DNA of 37,289 bases from the NCBI GenBank assembly GCA_021432655.1, contig MU271419.1, positions 1 through 37,289 of the forward strand. The letters are read 5' to 3'. Shown here piece after piece: positions 12,111 to 36,104 of this stretch (within the stretch, counting starts at the first letter, position 1; each line of letters opens with the position of its first letter). Under the pieces are notes generated by a model. That model made no database searches, was not told the DNA's origin, and saw only the letters and a list, made by a program, of their open reading frames with translations. A program made the translations under genes and the position numbers. Source of the stretch: Atractiella rhizophila. Its lineage: Eukaryota.

Positions 12111-12880
12111 TGTCAGGTTTGCATCTTACGCAAAGCGGCACCCGTTCGCCGGATTGCGTCTCCCGTCGTCGCTCTGCGTCTCCCGTCGCCGCTCTGCGTC
12201 TCCCGTCGTCGCTCTGCGTCTCCCGTCGCCGCTCTGCGTCTCCCGTCGTCGCTCTGCGTCTCCCGTCGCCGCTCTGCGTCTCCCGTCGTCGCTCTGCGTC
12301 TCCCGTCGCCGCTCTGCGTCTCCCGTCGTCGCTCTGCGTCTCCCGTCGCCGCTCTGCGTCTCCCGTCGTCGCTCTGCGTCTCCCGTCGCCGCTCTGCGTC
12401 TCCCGTCGTCGCTCTGCGTCTCCCGTCGCCGCTCTGCGTCTCCCGTCGTCGCTCTGCGTCTCCCGTCGCCGCTCTGCGTCTCCCGTCGTCGCTCTGCGTC
12501 TCCCGTCGCCGCTCTGCGTCTCCCGTCGTCGCTCTGCGTTGTCTCCCGTGCACATCGGCGCCCGGTCGCTAAGTGGTGATGTAGGTGCAAATGGGCGAAC
12601 AGGCCCAATTGTGTCTATCCTCCTCTTATTAACTCCGTGTAATCCCACTGTCACTTCCCCTTTTAGTTCTCTTACATGTTTCATCTGCTCTCCTCTACGC
12701 TCTGTGGCAGTGTTATTCCGCTTGAACATATAGATCAGAGAGTAGTGGAGGTGACCTTAGAGTATTTTCTTAGGTTTATCTCCACTACAGGTTAGTCTTC
12801 ATGTCATATCATGCGCTTAAGTTTATCTCCACTACAGACGCATCGCCCGTCGCCGACCGCACATAGTGTCAGCCCTAACA
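12111..12880 (+). repeat. 5' LTR (type 1, 770 bp including minisatellite)
   Basis: TGTCAGG...CCCTAACA. The last ~150 bp are similar to the 3' LTR, but the U3 region is different. Confidence 0.9.
12161..12540 (+). repeat. Minisatellite: 19 x 20-bp TCCCGTCGYCGCTCTGCGTC with strict T/C alternation (40-bp higher-order unit)
   Basis: Read directly. Units are contiguous with no spacers. Confidence 0.98.
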
Positions 12881-12882
12881 GA

Positions 12883-12892
12883 AGAATACTCT
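12883..12892 (+). promoter_or_regulatory. Putative self-priming primer-binding site AGAATACTCT
   Basis: Lies 2 nt after the 5' LTR and does not have the TGG start of a tRNA-type PBS. It is complementary to AGAGTATTCT in the LTR (20936-20945; AGAGTATTTT at 12759-12768), ~34 nt downstream of the TATA-like motif. Confidence 0.7.
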
Positions 12893-12923
12893 CTCCACCT
12901 TTCAGAACAGCAAAACTTAAAAA

Positions 12924-14234
12924 ATGTCGGAGGTTTGGGGAGATATGGAACCGTGCGAATCGCCGACGAGCGAAGAACGCATCCATCACTTAGAAAGGAT
13001 GTTCCAAACTCTACACCTCACAACCAAAAAACAGTTCAAAAAACTCGAACAAGACCCTCATAACAAGTTTCAACCAACAAAATGCGCAAGCCTCCCAGAA
13101 CGCGAACGAAATTACACAACTGAGGTCCGACGTCCAAAACACAAATGACCGAATTTTACAACTGCTAGAATCCAGACTACCTCCTCCTAGAGACAGTGGC
13201 ACCACTTCCCCCTTTTTATGGCGAACAGACCCATTACCTCAAGCTTACTCTTCTCCCTCTATACCCCAAACTACCCAAGTTGCACCATATGCAGGTATCA
13301 AACTTTCCCCACCTTCAATCTTCAAAGGAGTGCCCAACACAGCTCCGACATTTTTACGCGAAATTTACGTCTACACGTCTACCGTTCTGGGCCAATTCCC
13401 AACTGAAAAATCGAAAATCCTATTTACCCTTTCTTACATGAAAGAAGGGGATGCGGAAAAATTCGCCGCTGGGATTTTGCGCCGACTTGTCAAAAACGAG
13501 GAATAAATTTTGTGGGAACAATTTTTGTCGGAGTTCAAAGCGCGTTTCTGCAAGACAGACCACAAGTTCATTGCACAGACAAAAATATCTTCCCTCCAAC
13601 AAAAGGGGAGCCTAGAAACCTACATCATCAGGTTTGAAGAATTGGCAAATCAAGCTGGCTTTGATGATGAAGCCCTTATTTTTTTCTTCAAACGAGGACT
13701 CAACCCTGCCCTACATCTCAAAGTAACCCAAGGAAAGTTCCCAAAATCGCTGGAAGACTGGAAAGACAAATCTCGGCGAATTGATGCGGAAGAATCTGCT
13801 CACTCAACCTTCTTTCGAATATCCCGTCGGCGAAAGACGGACCCCAAAATACGTTTTCTGCCAAAAGAGACAGCTCAAAATCATCAAAGCACAGAGAGAG
13901 CAGAACACCCGTATCGTATCGACCGAGCGCCACTTTGTCAATGGTCGCCGATCCGTCACCAAACGCCGCTACACACGCTCATAGAGCCAAAGACCCTGAT
14001 GACATGGAAGTCGATGCGACAAAATCTAGACCTCCTCGTTGCAGACGATGTCAAAAGATAGGACACCGGGAAAGAGAGTGTAGAATGACTATGAACAAGG
14101 AGCAATATCTGCGGGCCCAAGGGGAATATTTTGATTCAAAAATGATGCACCAAGGACGACAATTCGAACAATTCGCCGACCAGCCACCGGAAACGAGTGT
14201 TACCCAATCAAAAGATCTTGAGGAGGATTTTTAG
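12924..14234 (+). pseudogene. gag: Gypsy gag (frameshifted, internal stop)
   Basis: WEQFLSEFKARF...LQQKGSLETYIIRFEELA...FFKRGLNPAL capsid motif, DDMEVD, CCHC knuckle CRRCQKIGHREREC. Ends EEDF*. Confidence 0.9.
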
Positions 14235-14278
14235 GATGGCGGTGGGTGGAAGAAGTGTCCCCATCACCGATTTGCAAT
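14225..14278 (+). promoter_or_regulatory. Putative -1 ribosomal frameshift signal (G GAT TTT plus downstream stem-loop)
   Basis: The heptamer at 14225-14231 sits just before the gag TAG. The protease ORF (14246) is in the -1 frame. Stem CGGTGGGTGG / CCATCACCG starts 8 nt downstream. Confidence 0.7.
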
Positions 14279-17200
14279 TCATTTACGTCACATAAAATCA
14301 CTTCCAACAAAATGCCGCCCAGCACAGTATTCCCCCCGGCAGAACAAGACTCCCCATTCCCGAAATTGCATTTTCCCTCCTGGAGACAAAGATGCGCAGA
14401 AGTCGCAAAAATGTACAACAAAGTCCACTTACGCTCGACAACAGCATCTCTTGTCAGTTCGAAGACGAAACTCAGAACCGCATTCCACCATCCACATTCC
14501 CATCGCCGACACGCCACATCGGCGCTCGTCGACAGCGGCGCAACAACTTCTTTTATTTCTCCAAAACTCATTTCTGCATACAATCTACCTGTCACTCAAC
14601 TTCCTTCCCAGTACCTGTTTATAACATCGATGGATCTCTAAATCAAGGAGGATCCATCCATTCTGTCACTTACTTGCCCATTTCGATCGCAGCTCACCAT
14701 GAAGTTTGGCAATTCGCTGTAGCGGAGTTAGGGACCGTCGGCATGATTTTAGGCCACGACTGGCTAAAACACCACAACCCAGAGATCAACTGGGACTCAG
14801 GGAAAGTTGAGTTCTCTCGTTGCCCTACCAGTTGCAATGCAGAAGACGTGTCTACCACTCGCGAACACTTCCCGCCATCATCTACCTCGATACGAGCCGC
14901 CATGACAAAATCGCAGAAACTGGCAAAACACGCAGCGGCAATGAGACCAAAAAACGTCGTCGAAATACCAACGCAAATCGCCGATTTTGCAGACATCTTC
15001 GACGACGAAAAATTCAAAACTTCTCTTCCTCCCCGACGTCCTTGGGACCACGCGATCAACCTCATACCCGAAACACGACCATATGCGGGTCCAGTCTACC
15101 CCTTGAAAAGAGACGAACAAGCGGCGCTCGACCAATTCATTGACACAGAACTAAGCGCCGGCCGTATACGTCCTAGCACAGGTGAACACGGAGCCTCTGT
15201 TTTCTTCACGCACAAAAAAGACTCCTCCGAACTCCGTCCCCTTTTCGATTATCAGAAGCTAAACGAAGCCACAGTCAAAGACAAGACCCCACTCCCCATT
15301 CAAGCTGACCTCTTTTCCATGGTTGCTGGTAAGAAGTTTTTCAGCAAGATTGATCTGAGGAAAGGGTTCAACAACGTTCGTATCAAAGAAGGAGACGAAC
15401 ACAAAGCGGCGTTTCGCACAAATCGAGGACTTTTCGAACCATTGGTAATGTATTTCGGTCTCTGCAACTTGCTGGCGACTTTTCAAGCTTTCCTGAACTC
15501 CATTTTCCGCGCTATGATCGCTGCTGCGTTCATCTTCAGATACATCGACGACATCCTAATTGCGACAGAAACTGAAGAAGAACACTGGGAACGTGTTCGA
15601 CAAGTTTGTCAAATTTTTGCCCGAAAATGAACTTTATGTTAACTTACAGAAATGTGTTTGGTGTCAAAGCGAAGTATAGTATCTAGGATTGATCATTACC
15701 AGCAGGGTGATTGCACCGGATCCAGTAAAAGTTGAAGGGGTGATGCATTGGCCGGAATCGAAAAACATGAAGGAAGTCCAAATGTTCCTCAGTTTCGCTA
15801 ATTTGTATCACCACTTTTGCGACAGATTTAGTCACATCGCAAGACCTTTATATGAACTGACCAAAAAGGAGATTTCCTGGGTCTGGGGGGTAGATGAACG
15901 ACGTTCGTTCACTGCTTTGAAGCAGCTCATGACTTCGGCGCCCGTTTTGGCACATCCCGAACAAATAGGACGATTTTTGCTCGAAGTCGTCGATGCGTCA
16001 AATTTCGCGACAGGCGCTGTTTTGTCGCAAATGAAGCCAGATGGGAAGTTTCATCCTCTCGGTTTCGTGTCAAAATCACTCTACGCTGCCCAGAGGAACT
16101 ACGACACCTACGGCAAAGAAATGCTCGCGATTATGCGTGGACTGCAAGAATGGAGACACCTTCTTCAAGGTACTGATGAGCCATTTCTGATCCTAACCGA
16201 TCACAAAAACCTTGAGTATTTCAGAATACCACAGAAGTTGAATCGCTGACAGGCACGCTGGATCACTGAACTTGCATCCTTCAACTTCACTCTTTTACAC
16301 CGTCCTGGGCGGAACTCCGCAAAACCAGATGTGCTCAGTCGGCGACCGGATCACAAACCGGCGACTTGCGACAACTTCGACGTAGTATTACTCCCAGAAC
16401 GTTTTTTCAACACGGATCGTAGCACCATCAACGCGACTGGAAGCGCAGTTGCGCTCACAAGACAAATGTCGGAGTTGAGTATACTAGAACGCGTGAAAAA
16501 AGTACCCGAAAGGGAAGAACAAGTAGTAAAAGCCTTGAGAGAAACCCAAAACAAACAAGCCAACCAAATCCCCAAACGAAAGGGCAAAAAAGCCAAGGCC
16601 CCGGTCAATTTCCCGGAAAAACCCAAAATCCCCCCCAACAAGAAAATCCCCCCCCCAATTTGCAAAGACCGCAACAATCCCAAAACCGCCGGTCATCCAG
16701 GCGTAAAATCGACGACAGCCCTTGTAAAAAGGTATTACTGGTGGTCAGGTTTGGCACATTACATTCGCCGCTATGTCGGCGCTTGTTACACTTGCCACAG
16801 AACGAAAAACTCTCCTTCCCCACCTGTCTGGTTTTGACAACCAAACGACATTCCCACATGTTGATGGCAAATTGTCAGCATGGACTTGGTTGGACCACTC
16901 CCAGAATCTGGGGGTTCGACACGATTTTCGTCATAGTAGACAGACTCTCAAAACGCACCCATCTTATCCCCACCCATTCGACGATGGATGCAGAAGGCCT
17001 TGCAAGACTTTTTCGCGATCACGTATGGAAACTACATGGACTTTCGATGTCGCAATTTTCGATCAAGGTAAAGAGTTTGTGTCCAAATTCATATCCGCGC
17101 TTTTTCGACTGTTAGGTATCAAAGGTTCACCATCGACAGCCTATCACCCGCAAAGTGATGGTCAGACTGAACGCATGAACCAAGAGGTTGAACAATATTT

Positions 17201-18888: not shown

Positions 18889-18931
18889 GGACTTATGCTC
18901 AGCTGGTGATGGGTTAGGTGCCCTACGATGC

Positions 18932-20443: not shown

Positions 20444-20561
20444 TTTTGCAAGAATAGAAGGGGAGAGTGATGGTGGTAGAACTAGAAAAACTTTTTCGCC
20501 CAAGCTAGCTGCAAACCTTAACCTTAAAATTCCGTGACTCACATACACTAGTCAGAAATTT

Positions 20562-20569: not shown

Positions 20570-21059
20570 TGTCAGGCTTGCCCCTATGCATTACCGAAAT
20601 GCACCATTTGAAGTCACGTGACCTACTTTATCACGTCATGGGATCACATGCCTACCCATCGCCGCTTTGCTCACGTTCGTACTGACCGCCGCCTTCCCCC
20701 GTCTCACACGAATCGCCGCTCAGCAAACCTTATACATTTCGCCGGTCTGCACCATCTCCATTATTGCCTTATTATCCTTTCTCACTTGTACTGCTCAGTA
20801 TGTCTTATTTCCAAGTATTCCCTTTATTGGTTTCCTGATCTAGCTATCTTACATGTTTCAAGAAACGTATGTTACACTTTATGGCAGTGCCTTTACATAT
20901 GTATATATACATCGAGATGTAGTGGTGGTGACCTCAGAGTATTCTCTTAGGTTTACCTCCACTACAGGTTAGTTTTCTCATGCCATACTATTCTCTTAGG
21001 TTTACCTCTACTACAGACGCGTCGCCCATCGGCGACTGCACATAGTGTTTGCCCTAACA
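20570..21059 (+). repeat. 3' LTR (type 2, 490 bp)
   Basis: TGTCAGGC...CCCTAACA. Colinear with solo LTR 10428..10916. TATATATA at ~20902. Confidence 0.93.
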
Positions 21060-22066: not shown

Positions 22067-22074
22067 GTTGCTAC

Positions 22075-23091
22075 TAGGGATGGCAATCGGATCGCACCGT
22101 CCCAGACGTACGTGTCCGATACGTGTACCGTACCGGTCCGTCCTGATTGACTGTTCTTCGGGACGATAGATACGATACGCCATCCTCCACGTCCCGTCCG
22201 TTTTCATCCAGAAAATCCGTCGTATTACGGGTTACGGTGGCGGAAGGCAATTTGCAGCTGGAGCAATGGGTTACAAAGGAGGACAGTGGAGGCGATGGTC
22301 TGTGCTTCCTTTTCAGCATTCTTAGATTCTTCAACAAAACTGACACATTGAGGCTGCAGCTTATGAAACAAGACGAGCGCTCACACCGATAACACATCCT
22401 TCCTCTCCTCAAACATATAACATCTTCGACTCTCTCCATTCTCGATTATCTCGCTTCTATCGGTCATGCTCCAAGGCGGGAGCGGATGAAAATAGAGTAA
22501 TGAAGGAAATTAACCATCTCTTCAAGCATGTAACCCTGGCTTAGGAGCTGATCCACTTTCCTTTTGAAGTAAGAGTCAAAGCACAACTTGCACAACTTGT
22601 CTTTTCTGGCTCGAGATATTCTGGCTATTTCAGAACGTGTCTCCCCAAAGTGTTCTCACTTGCTTTCAGGGTTTTCAGTGCTATATGTTGTGCTGTGGGA
22701 GTCAAGCACATCTTCTCTGGTGCTTGTGATACCATAGGTATTTGCTGTCATTGTCCAGACACTGAGATACACGACCTTATCATGCTCAGGATCACATTGC
22801 GCGCTTCCTTCGTAAATCTCAGCTTACAGAGTTTGCAAATAGAGCTGATGACATTGGAGGATGACGGTGCAGAGCTGGTCAGAAGCGACGAAAGTGTGAC
22901 ACGTGACACTTGAGACGTGATGAAATTGCTATATGCCATATAACCCGTAATCCGTCGTATTCTCCCGTTTTCCGCCGTACTCGTACGTATCTGACAATGG
23001 AAATGTGTTACGGTACGATATGAGCCGAGACAGGACACGTACCGTCCGGAATTGGTGCTGAGACGACGATACGGTACGATAGCCATCCCTA
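22075..23091. mobile_element. Non-autonomous hAT-superfamily DNA transposon (1017 bp), 8-bp TSD GTTGCTAC
   Basis: Ends TAGGGATGGC / GCCATCCCTA (Ac/Ds-like). GTTGCTAC at 22067-22074 and 23092-23099. Subterminal short repeats (TACGG, CCGT, GATACG) at both ends. No recognisable transposase. Confidence 0.93.
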
Positions 23092-23327
23092 GTTGCTACT
23101 TATCTAACCGCCCTCTGGTGCCATCTTCTTCAAGTAGGTCATGTGTTGGCTTTGATGGTGAGGCTACAGGTAGTGAATGTTCTGAATTGGAGGGTTGATG
23201 ACAAAGAGAGGATATGATCGAAGAGAGTTGAAAGGAGAGCCCTGAGTGAGCTTGGGAGAGCGCTTGGTGGGTATTGGTAATCACCGGATGACTCAGTGAC
23301 TTATGTTACATTGGACTAGGACCAGAA

Positions 23328-23562
23328 TGTTGAAGTTATTATGTTTCTCGTCTTTCACTTTCTTTTGGCTCTCTTGAGTTGGCTATCGCATCTGGTGTTA
23401 GTTCCGCCCGCTCCCGTAGTTTAGTCTGTTTTCAGCTATCTGAGGTTCATCTTTTCTTCGTTGTCACTCTGATGAACCTCAGGTAGGTGACTCCTCACCA
23501 ACGTTCATGCAATACTGATGATCTTTTCTTCGTTGTCACTCTGATGAACCTCAGGTTCAACA
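23328..23562 (+). repeat. Copia 1 5' LTR (235 bp)
   Basis: TGTTGAA...TTCAACA. Internal 36-bp direct repeat at 23449 and 23521. Confidence 0.97.
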
Positions 23563-23574
23563 GGTTATGAGCCC
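23563..23574 (+). promoter_or_regulatory. PBS GGTTATGAGCCC (half initiator tRNA-Met priming)
   Basis: Directly follows the LTR. Complementary to the tRNAiMet anticodon arm GGGCUCAUAACC, as in Drosophila copia and Ty5. Confidence 0.9.
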
Positions 23575-23716
23575 AATCGTTCCCTACTGATTGAGCACTC
23601 CATTGTACCGCTCAATTCAACACCTTCTTCGATCAACAGCCGTAAACACCATCAAACAAACACGACGCGCCGCGCACAATTAAATTGCACGGTCCACAGG
23701 TCCATCCTGAAGTTTT

Positions 23717-24799
23717 ATGTCACGATCACCAAGATCAGGCAAACGATCTCTACCTCAAGATTCACAAGATCACGGCCTTGCAACCCCTGAACCATCAACT
23801 GCACCCGCGCGTGAACGTAGCCCTGCCCCTGAACCTGAAGAATTCCCGTTCGTCGCAATGGATGTGCTTCCGTCTTCTCCTCCAGTCTCTTACTCTGGTC
23901 GAAAAATCCCTACAATCCTCGACGGTCCCAACTATCGAGCATGGAAGGAAGATGCATACGAGACTCTGCGAAGCCAACAGCTCTGGCTCGTCACCTCTGG
24001 CGAGGAAAGGGAGCCCGTCGAATCTCGTTACGGTGCTGCGCTTTATCTGTTCGATCAGCACTCCATAGCTTGGAAGAACAAAAATCTACAAGCGTCCGCA
24101 CTTCTCTATGAATCGCTCTCAGACGGGATCAAGGCAAGAATCAAGGCCAACGACCTGAAAGAGAAAGCGAAGGAAATGTGGAATTGGTTGAAGAAGGAAT
24201 ACGATGCGGCAAATCATCTCTACGCCGTCACGGCGTGGAGCGCCTTCGCACGTACTCATTTCACTGGAACTACGCCTCAGCACTGGACAGAACATATGGC
24301 TGTCCTAGAAAAGAATCTCGCTGATTTCCTCAAGTACGTCGGCGAGAAGCAACTCACCACCGAAACCTGGCAATCAATCATCTTCTCCGCCCACCTCCAA
24401 GCGACGCTCCCGGATTCTCTTCGTGACAAGATGAAGCCCTACTTCTCAGCTCTCCAGGCGACAAAATCAGCTCAGGCAACTCTGGTCGATTTCACTCCAG
24501 AGTGGATCTCCAACACCATCAACACGATAATGCTGGAGGAAGGTCTCAGCGAGGTTCAGAAAGCGCAGGAACAGGCCCTGATCACTCATTCAACAACACC
24601 TGCGAGGGGTGGCGGAAACAGTGGGAGTGTAGGAGAAAAGGGGAGAAGAAACGGCTCAAACCGCTTCCCTCCATGCCCTCACTGCAGCCTGCGATCACAC
24701 ACCTCCGAATGCTGCTGGGAGCTTGAAGCCAATCGAATCCTTGCGCCTCCCGGGTATCGATTTAAGGACGGAACGGTGAACCCAAAACAAAAAAAATAA
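23717..24799 (+). CDS. gag: Copia 1 gag
   Basis: LDGPNYRAWK...LRSQQLWLV, AKEMWNWLKKEY, CCHC knuckle CPHCSLRSHTSEC. Confidence 0.92.
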   Translation: MSRSPRSGKRSLPQDSQDHGLATPEPSTAPARERSPAPEPEEFPFVAMDVLPSSPPVSYSGRKIPTILDGPNYRAWKEDAYETLRSQQLWLVTSGEEREPVESRYGAALYLFDQHSIAWKNKNLQASALLYESLSDGIKARIKANDLKEKAKEMWNWLKKEYDAANHLYAVTAWSAFARTHFTGTTPQHWTEHMAVLEKNLADFLKYVGEKQLTTETWQSIIFSAHLQATLPDSLRDKMKPYFSALQATKSAQATLVDFTPEWISNTINTIMLEEGLSEVQKAQEQALITHSTTPARGGGNSGSVGEKGRRNGSNRFPPCPHCSLRSHTSECCWELEANRILAPPGYRFKDGTVNPKQKK

Positions 24800-24800
24800 C

Positions 24801-27800
24801 GTGAAAGAAGTTGCATCACCATCTATCGACACTTCGTCCATTCCTCAGGTCGAGCAAGCCAACCTTGTCCTCAACGCCTCTGATTTCAGCTCAGACTTTG
24901 CACCGACTGCCCAAGCGACGCCGCCATTCTCCGTCCAAGACCAGGTACGGCTAGTTGAAGAAGTGCAAGCTAGCAGGGCCAATCTATCACTTGACAGAAG
25001 CATGGCCATCGCTTGCATTGACTCTGGATGCACCTCTCATGTCTTTCCTCTCGATTACATCTCTAATCGTCAGCCTCACAGCGGATCCATCGAGGTGGCG
25101 GATGGAAGGAGCATATCCATTACCACTAAAGGCACCACAGAATACACCACCCACAACAAACACGGACGACCTCTTTCCAACATCATACTTCGAAACGTTC
25201 TCCACCTCCCCTCACTCACCAACCCCCTGATAAGCGTCTCCAAACTCGTCAGCCTCTCTCTCCCACCACACGACCGCCTCAAACTCGTTTTCGAGGATGG
25301 AGCATGCAACATTTTCAACCGGGAAGGACGACTAGTAGGAATGGCAGAGGACAAAGGAGGGTTGTTTCTATTAAAAGGGGATGCGAAGAAGGTGAGCACT
25401 TGTGTCGACACTGTATCCAAGGCAGTCGATCTGAAGGTGTGGCACAATAGGCTCGCACATATCGGGATGGAAAAGATCAAAGAGTTGGTTTCGAAGTCTC
25501 TAGTTGGAGGATTGGAGGTGAAAGACTCGAAAGAAAGAAATTTCCAAGATTTTTGCGAGCCGTGTGTGATGGGAAAAATGCATCGGGGTTCGTTTCCTTC
25601 AAAACAAAGCATCGAGCTCCCGCCCACTCTACCGGGCGAGTCTGTAGTCTCCGATTTAACTGGACCTGTGCAAGTCTCTTCGTTAGGTGGTGCCTGGTAT
25701 TCAGTCGTACACGTAGATGTCCGTTCAAGAGTAGTACATCAGGAATTCATTCCAGACAAATCGAAAGCAACCGTTCTCCCATCTTTCAAGCGATTCAGAT
25801 CAATTCTTCATGCGAAAACGCAGAGAACTGTGAAAAGATGGAAAGTCGATGGTGGGGGAGAATTCGTGAATAACTTGCTACAGTCCTGGTTCGAAATCAA
25901 CAACGTGGAATGGAAAGCAACGACTCCTTACTGTCATCAAGAGAACGGGATTGCAGAACGCATCCATCGCACTCTTCGTAACCTCGCAAAGTCCATGCTT
26001 CACCACGCAAAGCTGCCTCTAACATTTTGGGCGGAAGCTCTCTACTTTGCCGGTCACGTCTACAATCGAACACCTCACTCTTCGTTACAAGGAAAAATAC
26101 CACTCACAAGCCTCAAAGGAACCAAACCATCGGTTGGCTATCTACGCACGTTCGGCTGCACAGCATGGGCACTGATTCCAGAAGAGCGAAGGAGGAAGTG
26201 GGAAAACAAAGCCATCCGCTGCATCTATCTGGGACCAGATGTCATGTTCAAATCCCATCGCTGCTGGGACCCAGTCAAACGCCGTCTGATTCGTGCACGC
26301 CATGTCGTATTTGCCGAAAACTACTTCGAAGGAAGAACAGGGTCAGATCGTCTGGATGACTACTCCTTCTGGTCAGAAGAGAACATAGACGAGTTCCCTC
26401 AAGACACACCTTCTGACGCTGGACTTCCCGATTTGGGAGTGCAAATTGCACCCTCCGCTCCAAACTCCATTGAAACGATAGCTCCAACCCCATCCATTCC
26501 GAGCTCCTTCGAGGTGAGAAATGATGAGGAGAGAGATGATTTGAAAACGGGCAGTTGCGAGGGCGCTTCACACGAAAGGGTGGACGTAAGACCCGCAATT
26601 CAGGAAAGTGATGTTCCTCTAAATGACCAGCAATACCCTGATACAACAACTGAACCTACGTTCACTCATATGCGTCCTGACATTCCTCCCGAGCCACCTT
26701 CGATCCTTCCATCAGCCTCGACTCAAACGGTCCCACCTCCTCGCCGTTCCACACGAAAGAGAATCGCGAACAGGCGTATCTTCAATAATGACTATGCGGT
26801 TGATCCGAAATACCAAGATATTCTGCGCCTTGCTTCAACCACCAGCGCTGAAAGGAGCTTGAAATTGGGCAGTTGCATGGGGGCCGAGCACGTAGTGGTG
26901 GACGTAAGACCCATCCAGCAGGAAAGTGCCCTCGCTTCGCATGATATGCACGTCCCTAACGACAGCTCTCCCATCGCGGTTCGGGTGGATGAGCTCTCAC
27001 AAAAGGACGTACAAGAAGCAATTGGCAAACGGCGCCAGACAACCCCTCCGTCCAAACAACCTGCCCTAGACTCCGTAGATTACATGTTCTCGACGCGAGC
27101 GCTACAAGATCGTGGGTGGACCCTGCGAGAGCCCCGCAGTCTCAAGGAGGCTCTAGCGAGCAATGAAGGTCCTGATTGGCTCCAGGCGTGTCGGAACGAG
27201 TGGGAGAAACAGTTCCTAAACAAAACCATAGAGGGTGAGCCGATAGAGCTTCCTGAAGGAGAAACAGCTACACCTCTCATGTGGGCGTTCCGACACAAAT
27301 ATGATATTAATGGAAAGTTAGAAAGCCTAAAAGCACCAATCTGCGTCAGCGGAGACCTTCAAACTCCTACTGGGGATCCAACTTTCGCTCCAGTGAGCAA
27401 TGGTGAGACGATTCGCGGAGTAATCGCCCTTGCTGCCCGTGAAGACCTATCCATCTATCAAGCTGACTACGAAACTGCTTTCCTTAACTCCCCAATAGAC
27501 ACCTCAAAAACTCGAATCTATATTCGTCAACCCCCTGGACTAGAGAAACCTGGAACGGAAGGGAAGGTATACCTTCTAAAAAAAGGACTATATGGCCTGT
27601 TGGAAGCAGCTCGTCTGTGGTTTGACACGCTCAAAGAAGACCTCCAAACGAAAGGTTGGACTCCCCTATGGTCCGACTCCTGTGTCTTCACAAAGAGGGT
27701 AGACGGCAAGCTCTACATCCTAGTCGTTTATGTTGACGACACGCTCCTATTGGGGAAGGATCGAGGAATTGTCCAAAGGCTTCAGCAGGAGCTGGGGACC

Positions 27801-28748
27801 TCATTCGCGATGCGAACACTTGGGGAAGTTGGGAAATTTCTTGGAATGGAAATCAAACGGGATTGGGAGAAGCGCACGATCAGCCTGACTCAAAGAGTCT
27901 ACACGGCGAGAATCTTAGAGAAGTTTGGGTTCACAAACAGCTACGCGAGTGTGCCTGCAAATCCAAAAGCAAAATTGGAACCATTCGATGGCGTTTGGAC
28001 TGAAGAAGAGCTCGCCAACAAGCCTAAGTGGTCTTTCCTGGAAGCGACCGGATGCCTCAACTGGCTTTCAATTTGCACACGGCCAGATATAACGTATGCG
28101 CTCTCAAATGTTCAGCGATTTGCAGCCAACCCTGGCCCAAATCATTATAAGGCAGTCAAACAAATCTTCCGTTACCTCAACGCAACCTCGAATAAAGGTT
28201 TGCTATTCAACGGCAACGATCGGAGACCCCTTCACGCATACGCTGACGCCTCCTTTGCCTCTCTTCTTGCCTCTCTCAAGTCGCAAGAAGGTCGGCTCAC
28301 CATGCTCTGCGGAGCACCCATCACTTTCAAATCAAAACCACAGACAGTTGTCGCCCTTTCTTCTGGTGAAGCAGAATATGGCGCTGCTGCAAAGGCAACT
28401 GCAGACCTCTTGTGGACGAGAGGTCTTTTCGAGGAACTAGGAGCCCTGGCAAGCGTCCATAACGTATCTCCTGGAGAAGAGATCCCTCCAACCACTGTCT
28501 TCGAAGACAATCAGGCTGCAATAAAGATATCAACAAACGGCGTTCACCACGCGCAAAGCAAGCCCTTCCTACTTCGCTATCATATGGTAAGAGACAACGT
28601 GCAAAAAGGGAACATCGTACTACGGTACATACAGACCAAGCACCAAATTGCCGACGTTCTCACGAAACCTCTCTCAAAGGATGTCTTTCACCAATGCATA
28701 TTCGCCATGGGAGTACGGGACATCGGAGAGCGCATTACCTTCACGTAG
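24801..28748 (+). CDS. pol: Copia 1 pol (PR-IN-RT-RNase H), +1 frame relative to gag
   Basis: IDSGCTSH, WHNRLAH, CEPCVMGK, DGGGEF, ENGIAER, LKKGLYGL, VYVDD, TRPDI, YADAS, EAEY, EDNQ, IADVLTK. Confidence 0.96.
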   Translation: MKEVASPSIDTSSIPQVEQANLVLNASDFSSDFAPTAQATPPFSVQDQVRLVEEVQASRANLSLDRSMAIACIDSGCTSHVFPLDYISNRQPHSGSIEVADGRSISITTKGTTEYTTHNKHGRPLSNIILRNVLHLPSLTNPLISVSKLVSLSLPPHDRLKLVFEDGACNIFNREGRLVGMAEDKGGLFLLKGDAKKVSTCVDTVSKAVDLKVWHNRLAHIGMEKIKELVSKSLVGGLEVKDSKERNFQDFCEPCVMGKMHRGSFPSKQSIELPPTLPGESVVSDLTGPVQVSSLGGAWYSVVHVDVRSRVVHQEFIPDKSKATVLPSFKRFRSILHAKTQRTVKRWKVDGGGEFVNNLLQSWFEINNVEWKATTPYCHQENGIAERIHRTLRNLAKSMLHHAKLPLTFWAEALYFAGHVYNRTPHSSLQGKIPLTSLKGTKPSVGYLRTFGCTAWALIPEERRRKWENKAIRCIYLGPDVMFKSHRCWDPVKRRLIRARHVVFAENYFEGRTGSDRLDDYSFWSEENIDEFPQDTPSDAGLPDLGVQIAPSAPNSIETIAPTPSIPSSFEVRNDEERDDLKTGSCEGASHERVDVRPAIQESDVPLNDQQYPDTTTEPTFTHMRPDIPPEPPSILPSASTQTVPPPRRSTRKRIANRRIFNNDYAVDPKYQDILRLASTTSAERSLKLGSCMGAEHVVVDVRPIQQESALASHDMHVPNDSSPIAVRVDELSQKDVQEAIGKRRQTTPPSKQPALDSVDYMFSTRALQDRGWTLREPRSLKEALASNEGPDWLQACRNEWEKQFLNKTIEGEPIELPEGETATPLMWAFRHKYDINGKLESLKAPICVSGDLQTPTGDPTFAPVSNGETIRGVIALAAREDLSIYQADYETAFLNSPIDTSKTRIYIRQPPGLEKPGTEGKVYLLKKGLYGLLEAARLWFDTLKEDLQTKGWTPLWSDSCVFTKRVDGKLYILVVYVDDTLLLGKDRGIVQRLQQELGTSFAMRTLGEVGKFLGMEIKRDWEKRTISLTQRVYTARILEKFGFTNSYASVPANPKAKLEPFDGVWTEEELANKPKWSFLEATGCLNWLSICTRPDITYALSNVQRFAANPGPNHYKAVKQIFRYLNATSNKGLLFNGNDRRPLHAYADASFASLLASLKSQEGRLTMLCGAPITFKSKPQTVVALSSGEAEYGAAAKATADLLWTRGLFEELGALASVHNVSPGEEIPPTTVFEDNQAAIKISTNGVHHAQSKPFLLRYHMVRDNVQKGNIVLRYIQTKHQIADVLTKPLSKDVFHQCIFAMGVRDIGERITFT

Positions 28749-28925
28749 CATCTAATCTGTTTGACAAAATGCTTGCATTGCAACTTACAGTAATATCTTG
28801 GAAAAGACGTTAAAAGAAATGCATTTGACCACACACCGTGGTTGTCTACCCTATCATTTCTGCATCTCTCCTCCTGCATTGCACCAGCTGTTTTCATTTC
28901 CGTTCGTTGTGTTACGGTAGCGTAC

Positions 28926-28935
28926 GGAGTGGGAG
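28926..28935 (+). promoter_or_regulatory. Copia 1 polypurine tract GGAGTGGGAG
   Basis: Abuts the TG of the 3' LTR. Confidence 0.85.
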
Positions 28936-29098
28936 TGTTGAAGTTATTATGTTTCTCGTCTTTCACTTTCTTTTCGCTCTCTTGAGTTGGCTATCGCATC
29001 TGGTGTTAGTTCCGCCCGCTCCCGTAGTTTAGTCTGTTTTCAGCTATCTGAGGTTCATCTTTTCTTCGTTGTCACTCTGATGAACCTCAGGTAGGTGA
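28936..29098 (+). repeat. Copia 1 3' LTR, 5' part
   Basis: Matches 23328..23490. Confidence 0.96.
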
Positions 29099-29368
29099 TG
29101 TTGGATTATGATCTTTCACAGGGCTTTCCCAGCTGGTGGTTGTTGGGCTCTTCACTTCGTTCTAGTTATGTCTTACATCTCATATCCTCCCGCACTTAGC
29201 CAACGCCGTCCGCTCATATATATACCTCCTCTTCGTTCACTGGATTCCCCATCGTCTTCCACCATCGTAAACGATTGGGGAATCCAGGTCTGTCTTCTCC
29301 TACATAGTGTTTTGCATTGCTGATCGTCTTCCACCATCGTAAACGATTGGGGAATCCAGATTCTATCA
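29099..29368 (+). repeat. Copia 2 5' LTR (270 bp)
   Basis: TGTTGG...TATCA. TATATATA at ~29217. 37-bp direct repeat at 29251 and 29323. Confidence 0.97.
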
Positions 29369-29380
29369 GGTTATGAGCCC
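29369..29380 (+). promoter_or_regulatory. PBS GGTTATGAGCCC (half tRNAiMet)
   Basis: Same 12-mer as in copia 1, directly after the LTR. Confidence 0.9.
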
Positions 29381-29501
29381 AAACCCTCGAATCTGAGGCA
29401 TCTCTGTTTCAGGTGGCAAAGTCGATTTTTTCTTGATCGAACGAAGTATCTTCTGGAGTCCGGAGCGACTATAAATCTCGTACATCTCATCTATTCGTTA
29501 C

Positions 29502-32500
29502 ATGTCGCGTAGGACGCGACTCAGGAGCAACCAAGATCACCTTCAACCTCCTTCATTTCTTCCGAACGTTTCGGAGTCCTTCCAAGGTCTCAACATTGAA
29601 GAACCGAGCATTCCCACGCCATCTACGGCTGATCTGCTCAGCTCACCACCTCCTTTCTTCACACGCGACAACTCTTTCTATCTTCCCATCGAAACCGACG
29701 ACGAATTGCCCATCATGTCTCCAGACAATATCAAGATTTCGGAGAAACTCACTCGGGCGAATTGGTCGTCATGGTCAGAAGAGGCGAAAGAATGTTTGAA
29801 GACGATGATGCTTTGGGGATATATTGCGGAGAATGCCAAAGGGGAAGTCCTAATGGCGCGACCGGTTAGGGAGCTTTACGAGGCGGCTGGACCGTCTCAG
29901 GCTATTCTTTTCAGCAAAGAGAATTCTGCCTGGCTGAAAGGGGATTGGGCTGCTAGTGCGTTCTTAAAGGCTTCGGTTGACGATGCTTTGAAAGAAATTA
30001 TTAAGGCGAAAGAGTTGGAATGGAGTGACGAAGAGAATACCGCTCATATGATCTGGAAACTTCTTCAGTCCAAATGCACGGCCGAAGGTACCCTTCAAGC
30101 TACTACAGCATGGCGAGCTTTCCTTTCCACCGCCTCCCAACCCATCTCCTCGACCTCGTATGTGGATTGGGCCAACTCTGTTCGACGATCGTGGGTGGAG
30201 ATCGAACGATATGCGGGCAAGATTACGGGACCCGACAAGATTATCTCCTTACATCTACTTTCGATGATTCCCGAGTCTCTCAGCATCAAATGGGAGACGT
30301 CATTCAAGGTTCTCCAGGAACGACACGAACGCTTACATCCCGGAACCCCTTTCAAAATCGAGCATATCTCCCCTGACACCATCGTTGAAGAAATTAGCGG
30401 GATCGTTGGAAGGGAATCTCTTACTCAAGATGGAGACCGAGCGTTTCTTATGCGACGATCTGATGGGACCGGTGGGAGTGTCAACAATGTTCATCCCAGT
30501 CGTCGTGGTTTCGTCGAGGCTGGTTCCAGATTCAGTGGGACCTGTGATCACTGCAAAAAGAAAGGACACAAGAAAGCGGAATGCTTCCAACTCCATCCAG
30601 AAAAACTCGAACAATTCCGCGCTAAGAAGGCTTCCTCGTCTCTCACCGCCAATGTCGCTGTTTCTTCGGAGACGCCTATCACAGTTTCTCCGCCTCCTTC
30701 CTTTCTCTCGGGATCGAACGTGCTCCCTACCAATGCCAATTGGGGTGATAGGCATCAGGATGTCAGCGGCAACCTTGGGACACAAGAGGTCTCTCACTTC
30801 GCCCGCTACGTTGGTGAACATCAGCCGGGTTGGAACGGGGATATCGATGCACTTTCTCTTGATATCAACGGTGCAGAGCCTGCTCACGCCCTCATTTTGC
30901 TCGACTCAGCCATCCGACATGACATCCCCGTTCCCAAAGTCGCATCTCTATCTCCTGCCTTGTCTGTCCTCGGCGACATCGCTCTCTTTGCGGCTCAAAT
31001 CAAAGGGTGTCTCGACTCAGGCTGTTCTAAGCCCACGGAATTTCGGAGGGAACTCATCCACAATTTCAGAGAGGAATCGGGTAATGAGACCGTTGAAGTT
31101 GGCAACGGAGTCAAAGTACCTATCCTGGGTCGCGGCGAAATGTTCTATTCTACTCGCACCCCGGACGGTTCTCCATGCGTCCTTCGACTTCGCGAAGTCC
31201 TCTACGTCCCTGCCATTCGGACCCCTCTCCTGTCTGTTTCTCAGATCGTTAAAGACGGGGATCACGAGGTTTTGTTTACTGCGAAAGGTGTCTACGTCCG
31301 CGTATCTGCTACTGGTGCTACCGTTGCCACCGCTTCTCTCCGCCATGGTGTCTATTGGATTGACGGTGATCCTATCCCTGCCCCTTCGTTCAGCTCTCCC
31401 CCGAGTGCGATTGCACGAGCATATCTCCCCTGACACCATCGTTGAAGAAATTAGCGGGATCGTTGGAAGGGAATCTCTTACTCAAGATGGAGACCGAGCG
31501 TTTCTTATGCGACGATCTGATGGGACCGGTGGGAGTGTCAACAATGTTCATCCCAGTCGTCGTGGTTTCGTCGAGGCTGGTTCCAGATTCAGTGGGACTT
31601 GTGATCACTGCAAAAAGAAAGGACACAAGAAAGCGGAATGCTTCCAACTCCATCCAGAAAAACTCGAACAATTCCGCGCTAAGAAGGCTTCCTCGTCTCT
31701 CACCGCGAATGTCGCTGTTTCTTCGGAGACGCCTATCACAGTTTCTCCGCCTCCTTCCTTTCTCTCAGGATCGAACGTGCTCCCTACCAATGCCAATTGG
31801 GGTGATAGGCATCAGGATGTCAGCGGCAACCTTGGGACACAAGAGGTCTCTCACTTTGCTCGCTACGTTGGTGAACATCAGCCGGGTTGGAACGGGGATA
31901 TCGATGCACTTTCTCTTGATATCAACGGTGCAGAGCCTGCTCACGCCCTCATTTTGCTCGACTCAGCCGTCCGACATGACATCCCCGTTCCCAAAGTCGC
32001 ATCTCTATCTCCTGCCTTGTCTGTCCTCGGCGACATCGCTCTCTTTGCGGCTCAAATCAAAGGGTGTCTCGACTCAGGCTGTTCTAAGCCCACGGAATTT
32101 CGGAGGGAACTCATCCACAATTTCAGAGAGGAATCGGGTAATGAGACCGTTGAAGTTGGCAACGGAGTCAAAGTACCTATCCTGGGTCGCGGCGAAATGT
32201 TCTATTCTACTCGCACCCCGGACGGTTCTCCATGCGTCCTTCGACTTCGCGAAGTCCTCTACGTCCCTGCCATTCGGACCCCTCTCCTGTCTGTTTCTCA
32301 GATCGTTAAAGACGGGGATCACGAGGTTTTGTTTACTGCGAAAGGTGTCTACGTCCGCGTATCTGCTACTGGTGCTACCGTTGCCACCGCTTCTCTCCGC
32401 CATGGTGTCTATTGGATTGACGGTGATCCTATCCCTGCCCCTTCGTTCAGCTCTCCCCCGAGTGCGATTGCGAACTCAGCTGTGTCTTTGGACGTGTGGC

Positions 32501-35500
32501 ATCGTCGCCTTGGTCATCCTGGAAGGGACAGGCTGGAGAGACTTTTGAAGGAGGATCTGGTGACTGGTTTTGATGTTGTTGGCCCCAAAAAGGTTGATCT
32601 TAAGTTAGAGGATTGTGAGGCTTGTGTCATGGGCAAGATGACGAGGGGGTCCTTCCCTCAAAAGTCTTCTGCTTTAGAGTATCTTCCTGGCGAGTGTATT
32701 TCTACTGATCTCTGTGGTCCTATGGAAGTCCCATCTTTGGGCGGTTCTCTGTACATGGCGACGCACGTTGATTATGGTTCGCGTACTTTCCACGTTGAGT
32801 TCTACTCTGGCAAGCTGGCATCTGAGATCATTTCTTCCTTTAAGTCGTTCAAATCGTGGATCGAACTCAACTCTGGTCGCCGCATTATTCGCTGGAAGGT
32901 TGATGGAGGTGGAGAATTCATGAACGGGCTGCTCAGTCGTTGGATGTTGGATGCAGGGATCAACAAGACTCCTACCACACCCTACTGCTCTCCTGAGAAT
33001 GGGGTTGCGGAACGCGCTCATCGCACAATTGTCACCTCTGCAGTATGTATGCTTCACCACGCAGGTCTTGACAAGAAGTTCTGGTCCTACGCCTGCGCAT
33101 ATGCAGCTCATTTGCACAATCGCCTTCCTTCCAAACCGCTCGATGGTCGTACTCCTCTGGAGGTTTCCACAGGTCGCAAGCCTCCGGTTGATCACTGTCG
33201 CGTTTTCGGTTGCACAGCTTATGCGAAGATACTACATCAATCTGGAAAGTTCTCAGGTCGTGCTCACGAAGGTGTATATCTGGGCCCCGACGTTCAACAC
33301 AAGTCTCACTTTATTTTCGTTCCTCAGTTGCAGCGTGTTTTGCGAGCCCGTCATGTTCTATTCCGTGAAGATCACTTTGCAGGACGGGTACCTGGCGACA
33401 CTCTGCTTTCCTCAAATTTTGTTCCTAACTTCGATCTCTCTCATACATTTCCGCAATCTCTTCCGGAAGAGCCCTCCTTCCCTGATTCGACTGCCCCGGT
33501 TGCAACGGATATATCGCCACCACCTATTCTCGTACCCCCTACAGGCGGTTCTGGTTCGGTGGGAGCAGTGTCTACACCATTGACGGGTGGCTTGTATGCT
33601 CATGGGGATGGTTACTCGGAAGGGGGCGTTCAGCGCGTGATGGCGGATGTAAGACCCACTCAAACGATGAGTTCTAACTCTCCCGTTCATGTGCGGCATG
33701 CTGATACTTCCTCTCTCGTTGCTCCTGTGCCAGTCCGCACTTCAAGAAATGGCCGTACCATCAAGCCTAATCCCCGGTATTTCAACGATAATTATGTTGT
33801 TGACGCTATCCCGTCGACATCGCTGGCCAACTCTGCGGTTGAGGTCGTTGACCTACCCTCTGATATTGCTTATTTCGCCTCTGCTTTGCCCACTCCTGCG
33901 GCTCCACCCTCGTCGTATGCGTTTAGTCTGCAACACCATCTCGACTCTGGATGGACTGATATTCCTGATGATCTTGCTTACCTTCTCTCCTCTGATGTCA
34001 CACCGTCTTCTCCTCCTAGATCTTGGAAGGAGGCCATGTTTGGCCCGCACAAAGAACACTGGCGCGCTCAGATGGAGAAGGAATGGACCCATGGCATGGT
34101 CGGCCAAGGGGTTGTTGGAGAACTTCAGCCGAAGCCTGATGGGGTCAAGGCCATAGGTTGGCAATGGGTCTTCACCATTAAGGATCATTTACAAGGGACT
34201 GGAGAAGAGTTTAAGGCCCGTCTTTGTGTACGTGGCGATCAGCAGCCTTCTTCACCATCGAATGCCTCCAATTACTCCCCTGTTACCAACTGGAACACCA
34301 CTCGGGCGGTCTTAGCCTATGCTGCCAGGGAGAACCTCCATGTTCACCAAGCTGATTATTCGCAGGCCTTCCTTAACTCCCCCCTTGACGATCTCACGGT
34401 TTTCGTCAAACAGCCTCCGGGATTCGTTGTTGAAGGCAGGGAGGACTGGGTTTATCCGCTCAAGAAAGGCGTCTATGGACTGGTCCAGGCTTCTCGTTTA
34501 TGGTATAAGACACTGAAGGCGGACCTACTTTCTAAAGGCTGGCGGGAACTCTGGTCTGATTCCTGTGTCTTCATCAAGGTCATTGATGGGGTTTCTTACA
34601 TTCTAGTTGTTTATGTTGACGACACACTCACGGTTGGACCGGTTGAATCTGCAGTCATTGCCTTGCAGCGGGATCTTGCTTCCACTTTTCGCATGCGCCT
34701 ACTTGGTCCGGCAAAGAACTTCTTAGGGACGCTGATTGAACGGGATTGGTCTAAAGGCACATTGTCTATCTCGCAGTCCTCTTTCATCGTCGACACCATT
34801 CGTCATTTTGGCTACGACCAGGACCAGTTGCCCTCTGCCCGTACCCCCGTGGATGTCAATGAACGCCTGGAGCCTTTCGATGGCTCGTGGTCTGAGGAGG
34901 ATCTTCGCTCGAAACCATCCTGGTCCTTTAACTCCGTTATCGGTTGCTTAGGTTGGCTTGCCACTGCCACACGCCCTGACATTTCCTTTGCGCTCTCGAA
35001 TATTTCTCGATTTCAATCGAATCCTGGTCCCGCCCACTTTCGTGCTGCTGACCGCATTCTACGCTATCTCAAAGGTACTCCTACTCATGGCATAGTCTAC
35101 GACCGCTCCAATCGTCAACCTCTATCCTTCTACTCCGACGCCTCCTTCGCAACACTCCTTCCTAACCTTCGGTCTCAGACGGGTGTTGTTGCCATGTTAG
35201 CAGGTGGACCAATCTCTTGGGTATCTCAAGCTCAGAAACTCGTGGCTGGTTCATCCGGGGAGGCAGAATACAGCGCTGCTCATGTTGCGGTCAAACAAGC
35301 CATTTGGACGCGTGGTTTCTTTCAGGAATTAGGCGCTCTCAACCTGGTCCACAATGTGGATCCTTCTGCCCCTGCTCCCCCGACTACTATCTTTGAAGAT
35401 AACCAAGCGACCATTGCAATCTCTCAAAACGGCTCTCACCAAGCGCAATCGAAGCACTTTCTGCTACGCTACTACATCGTTCGGGATCGGGTCAATCGTC

Positions 35501-35649
35501 ATGAAGTTGTATTGCGTTACATTCGTACAGGCTCCCAGATTGCAGACTGTCTCACCAAGGCCGTCTCCTACGTTCCTCTACGAAAGGCTATGGACGCTCT
35601 GGGAATTCGCGCAATAGGGTCGAAGTTTCTGTGGTCTGGAGGATCATGA
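29502..35649 (+). pseudogene. Copia 2 gag-pol polyprotein, frameshifted by an internal tandem duplication
   Basis: ORF 29502..31433 gives gag plus protease (CDHCKKKGHKKAEC, LDSGCS) and stops just after the duplication junction. The second copy runs in another frame through WHRRLGH, DGGGEF, KARLCVRG, YVDD and IADCLTK to TGA at 35649. Confidence 0.93.
30359..32471 (+). repeat. Tandem duplication, period 1057 bp (30359..31414, A, 31416..32471)
   Basis: Direct comparison shows 6 substitutions between the copies. Confidence 0.97.
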
Positions 35650-35757
35650 TTTGTCTTATCCCGTTTGTTTACCCTTACATTATTTTGGTATTGTTCTTTT
35701 GGTTTCCTTTCGTTGTCATGTCTTGCATATGAGCTCTCACCGTCGTTGGGGTGGGAG

Positions 35758-36027
35758 TGTTGGATTATGATCTTTCACAGGGCTTTCCCAGCTGGTGGTT
35801 GTTGGGCTCTTCACTTCGTTCTAGTTATGTCTTACATCTCATATCCTCCCGCACTTAGCCAACGCCGTCCGCTCATATATATACCTCCTCTTCGTTCACT
35901 GGATTCCCCATCGTCTTCCACCATCGTAAACGATTGGGGAATCCAGGTCTGTCTTCTCCTACATAGTGTTTTGCATTGCTGATCGTCTTCCACCATCGTA
36001 AACGATTGGGGAATCCAGATTCTATCA
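35758..36027 (+). repeat. Copia 2 3' LTR
   Basis: Matches 29099..29368 and is preceded by PPT GGGGTGGGAG. Confidence 0.97.
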
Positions 36028-36032
36028 GGTGA

Positions 36033-36104
36033 CTCCTCACCAACGTTCATGCAATACTGATGATCTTTTCTTCGTTGTCACTCTGATGAACCTCAGGTTC
36101 AACA
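36033..36104 (+). repeat. Copia 1 3' LTR, 3' part
   Basis: Matches 23491..23562 and is followed by TSD CAGAA. Confidence 0.96.

Follow-up and report, generated by a model that had tools for sequence, protein, structure and literature searches.

A candidate self-regenerating intron in the long terminal repeats of copia and gypsy retrotransposons of Atractiella rhizophila

Described systems that resemble parts of the module

In general, an intron in the transcript of a retroelement is lost once the spliced RNA has been copied to DNA. Here we analyzed the sequence of a whole stretch of 37,289 nucleotides (nt) of Atractiella rhizophila (assembly GCA_021432655.1, contig MU271419.1, positions 1 to 37,289; hereafter, the window), in which the long terminal repeats (LTRs) of two copia elements and of a gypsy family carry a common module. 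This module consists of a short arm in the unique 3' region (U3), a first direct repeat (repeat 1) to which the arm is complementary, and an intron-like segment running from GT to AG, whose end is a second copy of the repeat (repeat 2). Judging from the sequence, the best explanation is a short spliceosomal-type intron located in the transcribed part of the LTR and built to survive splicing, a tentative reading that falls only just short of being probable. Apart from the module, which would be a new variation on the way they replicate, these copia and gypsy retrotransposons are ordinary.

Several described systems share one or another of these features. In the Rogers model, introns are gained by tandem duplication across AGGT, with direct repeats at both splice junctions and a spliced product that equals the unduplicated sequence, as in the module. 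However, the model deals with a one-off origin in a host gene, whereas in the LTRs the repeats appear to have been kept identical over time and to be linked with reverse transcription and with an arm in U3. In the same way, the internal complementary region of DIRS elements and the DR1/DR2 switches of hepadnaviruses provide an extra internal copy of a terminal sequence as a landing site, and reverse transcription rebuilds ends that the RNA alone carries in the wrong form. Unlike the module, these cases belong to other element classes, with other enzymes and sequences, and no intron is concerned.

By analogy, the nearest precedent for the arm appears to be that of foamy viruses, whose major splice donor is in the repeated region (R); in the 3' copy, the 13 nt of U3 that precede +1 alter the fold around the donor and thereby allow polyadenylation (Schrom et al. 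2013, PMC3694450). Both there and in the module the donor is in terminally repeated RNA, and a short U3 stretch present only in the 3' copy changes the fold of the donor; in the LTRs of the window this refolding by the U3 sequence just upstream of +1 is a prediction. In contrast, in the accessible part of that report the acceptor lies far downstream outside the LTR, the role shown is poly(A) site choice, and there is no mention of a complete LTR intron, of a duplicated leader or of a link to strand transfer. As for the gypsy family, the accessible text on the Tf1/sushi group describes self-priming, in which the first RNA bases anneal to the primer-binding site (PMC10085805). The gypsy family resembles this group in having a predicted RNA 5' end complementary to the site after the LTR (10 base pairs here), a hairpin in the unique 5' region (U5) and the order gag / reverse transcriptase / RNase H / integrase; by contrast, within the literature searched, no intron-like segment plus leader copy between self-primer and primer-binding site has been described for an element of the Tf1 group.

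Two more cases are related to splicing and to leader pairing. Spliced L1 copies (SpIREs; PMC5860796) also arise by splicing within the 5' untranslated region of a reverse-transcribed retrotransposon RNA, but, according to the accessible part of the article, the spliced-out part is lost from the new copy, a loss that the module would remedy. The 5' leader of Ty1, likewise an element of copia type, can pair with a sequence close to the 3' end of the RNA (CYC5/CYC3; PMC3592414), but in that case the partners are far apart and the accessible text mentions no local hairpin, repeat or intron. In a literature search outside most subscription journals, we found no published account of an intron that lies within an LTR and is preserved by means of a duplicated leader.

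Anatomy, splice-like signals and predicted RNA ends

The initial annotation of this DNA had described the arm / repeat 1 / GT...AG / repeat 2 arrangement, and direct reading together with a repeat search found every arm, repeat, GT and AG at its place, showing that the module is real (Table 1). It is present in 9/9 LTR copies of the window, 4/4 from copia and 5/5 from gypsy (copies A, B and C of the latter being further LTRs beyond those first noticed), with exactly two repeats in each copy; variants with one or three repeats were found in 0/9. Moreover, when the entire window was scanned on both strands for exact direct repeats of at least 16 nt spaced 35-150 nt, seven were found outside the tandem array at 12066-12619, and 7/7 lie in these LTRs. 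Clearly, the module is not a product of chance. The arrangement departs from the canonical U3-R-U5 layout with a single R, in that each LTR offers two identical candidate landing sites.

In copia 1, a 36-nt direct repeat (23449-23484 and 23521-23556) is 100% identical with a period of 72 nt, and the stem formed by the arm, 100% complementary over its 12-nt core, extends to 20 nt at 90% and spans the donor. The 37-nt direct repeat of copia 2, starting at 29251 and 29323, is also 100% identical with a period of 72 nt, and it extends to 47 nt at 91%. In gypsy LTR E the repeat lies at 20940 and 20989; the repeat search returned it as 33 nt at 91% in E and as 22 nt at 95% in LTR D, and the gypsy arms as 12-18 nt complementary at 78-92%. 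The gypsy arm and repeat 1 are conserved far better than the remaining LTR.

The three LTR families had been taken as unrelated, which cannot be maintained for copia 1 and copia 2. Their Pol proteins are 42% identical, they have the primer-binding site and the 72-nt period in common, with tails of 8 vs 9 nt, and their LTRs align weakly and collinearly, with islands at the LTR start, at CCGNCCGCTC before the TATA position, at CAG/GT, at TGCAWTRCTGAT before repeat 2 and in the tail. Because the Pol, the primer-binding site, the period and a weak LTR similarity are common to both copia families, we count two independent lineages, copia and gypsy, and not three. The similarity reaches a z score of 2.8 for the full LTR (5/500 shuffles reach the score) and of 3.1 for the intron part before repeat 2 (7/1000), whereas the repeat cores are not alignable (z 0.5; 311/1000). 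Two independent lineages, one of them with two related copia families, are more telling than three unrelated families would be. A further motif, TCATGC[A/C]ATAC, is common to the copia 1 (23503-23513) and gypsy (20977-20987) segments, just ahead of repeat 2. This 11-mer, with one mismatch, is reached in 14/3000 shuffles within the segments and is not significant at the LTR level (372/1000); it could be a common host-factor site or chance, and nothing is built on it here.

Regarding the splice-like signals, the donors CAG/GTAGGT (copia 1), CAG/GTCTGT (copia 2) and CAG/GTTAGT (gypsy) all follow CAG/GTNNGT, with GT at +5/+6 in 3/3 families, and an acceptor CAG closes repeat 2 in 3/3 families. After repeat 2, in turn, there is a poor donor or none (GTTCAA, ATTCTA and ACGCGT). 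In both copia families the branch-like CTGAT stands immediately 5' of repeat 2, within the best-conserved part of the segment (TGCAATACTGAT vs TGCATTGCTGAT), no AG occurs from CTGAT to the acceptor, and repeat 2 provides a pyrimidine-rich stretch. With segment lengths of 47-72 nt, the borders, donor consensus, branch-like motif (CTGAT, in 2/3 families), pyrimidine stretch and length are those of a spliceosomal intron. Apart from the LTRs, a 62-nt stretch at 22297-22358 (GTCTGT...CTGAC...CAG) shows an ordinary short intron-like unit in the window; it is skipped in one contig of the sequencing run X3, of unknown kind, either as an intron removed in RNA or because the contig comes from a copy without the stretch.

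It had also been proposed that transcription starts at repeat 1, and the predicted 5' ends are backed in silico by the gypsy self-primer, by the TATA spacing and by the starting base. In the gypsy family, the 12 nt immediately 3' of the LTR, GAAGAATACTCT, are complementary to AGAGTATTCT over 10 nt, perfectly so in copies A and E, a match that 12/5000 shuffles reach. The helix has a predicted probability of up to 0.94-1.0, and the prediction is the same whether the leader is spliced or not. As to sequence, this agrees with the Tf1/sushi group, in which the first 10-11 nt are complementary to the site after the 5' LTR; because the self-primer shows that layout, we take 20936 as the predicted 5' end of the gypsy RNA, at a distance of 34 nt from TATATATA. 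This octamer, noticed earlier about 34 nt before the expected start in copia 2 and gypsy, is indeed at 34 nt in each of them, so that two families have a TATA box at this distance, and the predicted start is an A preceded by C in 3/3. In the copia families the RNA starts are putative, being read from these signals. Most of the arm, in gypsy 18 of its 22 nt, precedes the predicted start, and this part would occur in the 3' RNA copy only.

Fold predictions with and without the arm agree in the three families with the earlier suggestion that the hairpin forms only when the U3 arm is included. Folded with the arm, that is, in a 3'-type context, the z scores are -3.5 for copia 1, -4.2 for copia 2 and -4.7 for gypsy E; folded from the predicted RNA start, the 5' context, they are -0.8, -1.9 and -1.95, respectively. 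The predicted copia 1 stem covers CAG/GUAG, and the gypsy stem, which is 97% paired across the 5 copies, reaches as far as the base that precedes the donor.

Concerted change of the repeats and possible explanations

If the repeats were rewritten at each round of replication, changes in one should appear in the other, and signs of this are seen in both lineages. Repeat 1 equals repeat 2 at 36/36 positions in copia 1 and at 37/37 in copia 2, and the arm of each family fits the repeat of that family. Should the two copia modules have a common ancestor, core and arm would have turned over completely with the repeats still identical within each family. One T/C difference separates the gypsy subfamilies A/D and B/C/E, and it is found at the equivalent site of repeat 1 and of repeat 2. 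The window was also compared with contigs of four sequencing runs from other genomes (X1, X3 and X4 among them), which are of DNA or of unspecified kind, and all the differences given from this comparison are those among the rows listed. The contigs were built with 31-letter words and the repeats measure 36-37 nt, and an intron-less copia LTR could therefore not show in them. In contigs of X1 and X4, TC insertions behind 23461 and, 72 nt further on, behind 23533 are found together. The contig depth in X4 is 6.09 for either insertion, equal to that of a 3-nt deletion at 23516, which fits one contig running through repeat 1, the segment and repeat 2. The copia 1 copy of the window has no TC in either repeat. 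Several joints of contigs in the gypsy LTRs, such as the one from 12790 to 12861, are ambiguous.

A second sign comes from the 5' edge of repeat 2. The part of the gypsy repeat that is constant across copies measures 22 nt and starts right after the 10-nt self-primer, and the sequence of repeat 2 upstream of this core is variable (TATTCT, TATTCA, TATTCC, CATGCG). Four different bases occur in one column only, that of the base just 5' of the repeat 2 core (position 20994 of E and 12815 of D), whether one considers the 158 ungapped columns between the TATA box and the LTR end or all 178 ungapped columns of the gypsy alignment. This base is also the only LTR position where B, C and E all differ, and its counterpart in repeat 1 is T in 5/5 copies. 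Similarly, a 3-nt indel is found at the junction of the copia 1 segment with repeat 2 in contigs of 4/4 runs. Untemplated terminal additions mark strand-transfer junctions in Ty1 and in retroviruses, and the untemplated terminal bases of strong-stop DNA would be fixed at the four-state column if this DNA ended with the base following the primer and landed on repeat 2. The initial annotation had proposed this landing; the concerted change of the repeats and the hypervariable base speak in its favor, and the landing itself we infer.

The simplest mechanism that could join these observations, a sharpened form of that proposed in the initial annotation, is as follows. Transcription would begin some 34 nt downstream of the TATA box, at the A that opens repeat 1, and the 5' copy in the RNA would thus be without the U3 arm. 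In this copy the donor CAG/GTNNGT would be free and the leader would be joined to the acceptor at the end of repeat 2; given that repeat 1 equals repeat 2, the spliced leader (repeat plus tail) would have the same sequence as repeat 2 plus tail. In the 3' copy, with its poly(A) site presumably at or after the start of repeat 2, the transcribed arm would fold on repeat 1 and the donor, so that this copy would stay unspliced and repeat 1 would not be accessible for annealing. With the spliced leader as template, the minus-strand strong-stop DNA would be the complement of repeat and tail, and would anneal to repeat 2 of the 3' copy. Its extension would then copy the intron, repeat 1, the arm and U3, and a complete LTR would be rebuilt; as a side effect, each cycle would overwrite repeat 2 with repeat 1. 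That two superfamilies each evolved such a self-regenerating LTR intron, in which the leader is spliced with whatever gain this brings to expression, its strong-stop DNA lands on the intron-internal copy of the leader in the unspliced 3' end and the arm hides the first copy and the donor, is a serious possibility that we regard as rather less than probable.

If true, a simple sequence device, namely a leader duplicated at the 3' end of an intron plus a U3 arm, would break the rule of intron loss. It would represent a new step in LTR replication, a first strand transfer that lands within an intron, and would answer in general how introns can persist in retroelements, since every new insertion would regain the intron. 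In addition, it would explain the use of splicing-dependent expression by retroelements in intron-dependent fungi; for a host of this kind, a basidiomycete in need of introns, the only hints in the analysis are weak protein matches named by their source as Sporobolomyces and Puccinia. LTR-internal repeats of this kind should not be dismissed by annotators as assembly noise.

Several points weigh against this mechanism. We infer splicing, the RNA start and the poly(A) site from the sequence; within the gypsy segment an AG (TTAGG) precedes the proposed acceptor, and a branch motif is not evident there; and the copia tail after repeat 2 has only 8-9 nt, so that the poly(A) site would have to be in repeat 2, the tail or the flanking DNA. 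As to the hairpin, in copia 2 the arm pairs with repeat 2 in the minimum-energy fold and with repeat 1 in the centroid only, while the gypsy hairpin shows no compensatory change, with 16/20 pairs invariant and its score reached in 184/500 shuffles. The concerted events are few and the copia LTR homology is statistically modest. Within the 22-nt core of the gypsy copies A and D, repeat 1 has AGG and repeat 2 has AAG, a common difference that is not expected under strict overwriting; this fits only if A and D derive from one reverse-transcription event with a strong-stop error, or if transfer takes place early. In X3, a CC insertion in repeat 1 (29069, depth 614.1 of 614.1) has no counterpart in repeat 2 among the rows listed, and may not be concerted. 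The argument on the hot spot was framed after the data had been seen. Lastly, a pattern scan of metagenomes for the copia primer-binding site gave 121 matches in 120 loci (95 with tRNA-gene-like flanks, 20 in other contexts and 6 LTR-end-like), and the module was found in 0/6 of the LTR-end-like loci, a small, taxonomically blind sample that carries little weight. One of these loci, L073, has a copia-like LTR end with this primer-binding site; about 130 nt before the site match, some 53 nt are duplicated in tandem, plainly and with divergence between the copies, and GT/AG borders and an arm are lacking.

Another explanation is that the intron is real and only unspliced RNA is reverse transcribed, as in retroviruses, the spliced RNA being used for export and translation; the repeats would then be a leftover of an AGGT duplication or serve an occasional rescue path. 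The splice-like signals are equally expected in that case, the self-primer helix is predicted alike for both leader forms, and the AGG/AAG difference inherited in gypsy A and D is just what an in-register transfer predicts. However, in-register transfer on unspliced RNA is unable to homogenise the repeats, and an out-of-register transfer would alter the repeat number, which is seen in none of the nine copies. This leaves unexplained the 100% identical repeats of two related copia families whose cores have turned over fully, the TC indel present in both repeats, and the coincidence of the repeat boundary with the predicted end of the strong-stop DNA, along with the four-state column at the 5' edge of repeat 2. 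We consider an unspliced template unlikely, even if it is the strongest competitor of the intron regained through repeat 2.

Less likely still, and in our opinion improbable, is that no productive splicing takes place. The donor and the arm would instead govern 3'-end formation as in foamy viruses, with U1 bound to the 5' copy preventing early polyadenylation and a fold that depends on U3 masking the donor of the 3' copy, or the pairing of arm and leader would circularise the RNA for strand transfer in the manner of Ty1 CYC5/CYC3, repeat 2 being a duplicated part of R. Such a role is in line with what the accessible texts describe for the foamy virus, whose donor in R is refolded by 13 nt of U3 with activation of the 3' poly(A) site (PMC3694450), and for Ty1, which requires a 5'-3' interaction (PMC3592414). 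It is also in line with an arm that adjoins the predicted start, alters the predicted fold and is complementary to both leader repeats. Nevertheless, a regulatory element of this type needs no acceptor, and the CAG acceptor, the pyrimidine stretch and the conserved CTGAT are nonetheless present. The identity and co-variation of the repeats beyond the 12 arm-paired nt, with a TC indel in the loop part, are left unexplained, and U1-dependent suppression of polyadenylation could not be documented in fungi. Finally, a neutral relic, that is, a local LTR duplication with a chance GT and AG retained as the copies are young, would suit the 99-100% identity of the copia LTR pairs and the plain duplication of L073, but is very improbable given the same architecture in two superfamilies and in 5/5 gypsy copies despite LTRs only 78% alike, the extra conservation of arm and repeat 1, GT at donor +5/+6 in 3/3 families and the lack of one- or three-repeat variants in 9 copies.

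Elements and other features of the window

Both copia elements have LTRs of the TG...CA type, a 5-bp target duplication and, directly after the 5' LTR, the primer-binding site GGTTATGAGCCCAA, which presumably matches the anticodon arm of the initiator methionine tRNA (tRNA-iMet). The LTR pair of copia 1 is 99% alike. Pfam searches found Retrotran_gag_2 in the copia elements, together with gag_pre-integrs, rve and an SH3 domain before RVT_2, which is the Ty1/copia order. When the copia 1 Pol was used in a protein search, the best-scoring match had 31% identity and none exceeded 37%, hence no family name or close elements can be given; likewise, a scan of viral contigs with the copia 1 Pol and with the alignment of both Pols found no relative. 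The gypsy element, a degenerate copy with the frame broken into pieces, presents the Ty3/gypsy order gag / RVT_1 / RNase H / integrase. A chromodomain at the C-terminus of its integrase was found in none of the 10 reading-frame pieces scanned, an absence that means little in so decayed a copy. The U5 hairpin of gypsy has one compensatory pair, in copy B. The search of Rfam gave 0 matches and that for tRNA genes gave 0. The coordinates are collected in Table 1.

Table 1. Coordinates of the elements, LTRs and module parts in the window.
Feature	Position	Strand	Remarks
Copia 1 element	23328-36104	+	Complete; 5-bp target duplication CAGAA at 23323-27 and 36105-09
Copia 1 5' LTR	23328-23562	+	TGTTG...CAACA
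Copia 1 U3 arm	23432-23451	+	Core CTGAGGTTCATC 23440-23451; complementary to repeat 1 end and donor (23471-90), and to repeat 2 end (23543-54)
Copia 1 repeat 1, presumed exon 1	23449-23482	+	Starts at A preceded by C; CAG end
Copia 1 intron-like segment	23483-23554	+	72 nt; GTAGGT...TACTGAT (23513-19)...CAG; last 34 nt (23521-54) are repeat 2
Copia 1 tail	23555-62	+	8 nt
Copia 1 primer-binding site	23563-76	+
Copia 1 3' LTR, first part	28936-29098	+	Interrupted within the intron-like segment by copia 2; remainder at 36033-36104
Copia 1 3' LTR, repeat 2 and tail	36063-36104	+
Copia 2 element	29099-36027	+	Inserted in copia 1 3' LTR; target duplication GGTGA at 29094-98 and 36028-32
Copia 2 5' LTR	29099-29368	+
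Copia 2 TATATATA	29217-29224	+	34 nt ahead of repeat 1 start
Copia 2 U3 arm	29240-29251	+	12 nt; 100% complementary to the final 12 nt of repeat 1 and of repeat 2
Copia 2 repeat 1, presumed exon 1	29251-29287	+
Copia 2 intron-like segment	29288-29359	+	72 nt; GTCTGT...GCTGAT...CAG; repeat 2 at 29323-59
Copia 2 tail	29360-68	+	9 nt
Copia 2 primer-binding site	29369-82	+
Copia 2 3' LTR	35758-36027	+	100% identical to 5' LTR
Copia 2 3' LTR module	35910-36018	+	Repeat 1 35910-46; repeat 2 35982-36018
Gypsy LTR E TATATATA	20902-20909	+	34 nt ahead of self-primer
Gypsy LTR E U3 arm	20918-20939	+	Predicted pairing with 20944-20966
Gypsy LTR E presumed exon 1	20936-20967	+	Self-primer AGAGTATTCT 20936-45; 22-nt repeat core 20946-67
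Gypsy LTR E intron-like segment	20968-21016	+	49 nt; GTTAGT...CAG; repeat 2 core 20995-21016; four-state column 20994
Gypsy LTR E tail to LTR end	21017-21059	+	U5 hairpin GTCGCC (21021-26) / GGCGAC (21031-36)
Gypsy LTR D module	12741-12892	+	Arm 12741-62; self-primer 12759-68; repeat 1 core 12769-90
Gypsy LTR D, continued		+	Intron-like segment 12791-12837 (47 nt); repeat 2 core 12816-37; LTR end 12880; primer-binding site GAAGAATACTCT 12881-92
Gypsy LTR copy A	9593-9865	-	D subfamily; full module
Gypsy LTR copy B	9940-10093 (approximate start)	+	Module retained from TATA box onward
Gypsy LTR copy C	10424-10630 (approximate end)	-	E subfamily; full module; two 22-nt repeats identical

Some features of the gypsy locus should also be mentioned. 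The LTRs A (9593-9865) and D (12610-12880) are about 95% alike and mutually inverted, and D and E, which flank the internal region, are 78% alike; from the sequence, the locus appears to be rearranged or a recombinant of two subfamilies. In copy B, the part upstream of the TATA box (9890-9950) is unlike that of the other four copies, which suggests a swap of U3 near the U3/R border. Directly upstream of LTR D, a tandem array with a 20-nt unit occupies 12066-12619, with at least 19 overlapping register copies. Besides, a stretch of about 1025 bp (22069-23093) with inverted ends, GGGATGGC... and ...GCCATCCC, is skipped in one contig each of X1 and X3 (joint 22068 to 23094), and looks like a small DNA transposon inserted within another repeat.

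Inside copia 2, a direct duplication of 300 nt (30359-30658 and 31416-31715) is 99% identical with a spacing of 1057. A contig of X3 skips exactly 1057 bases (31415 to 32473), indicating relatives without this duplication. The open reading frame at 7261-7932 on the minus strand matches COA8, the cytochrome c oxidase assembly factor 8 (Pfam E value 1.8e-12); the sole database relative found for it is 28% identical and named by its source as Sporobolomyces, and Puccinia is also among the weak protein matches.

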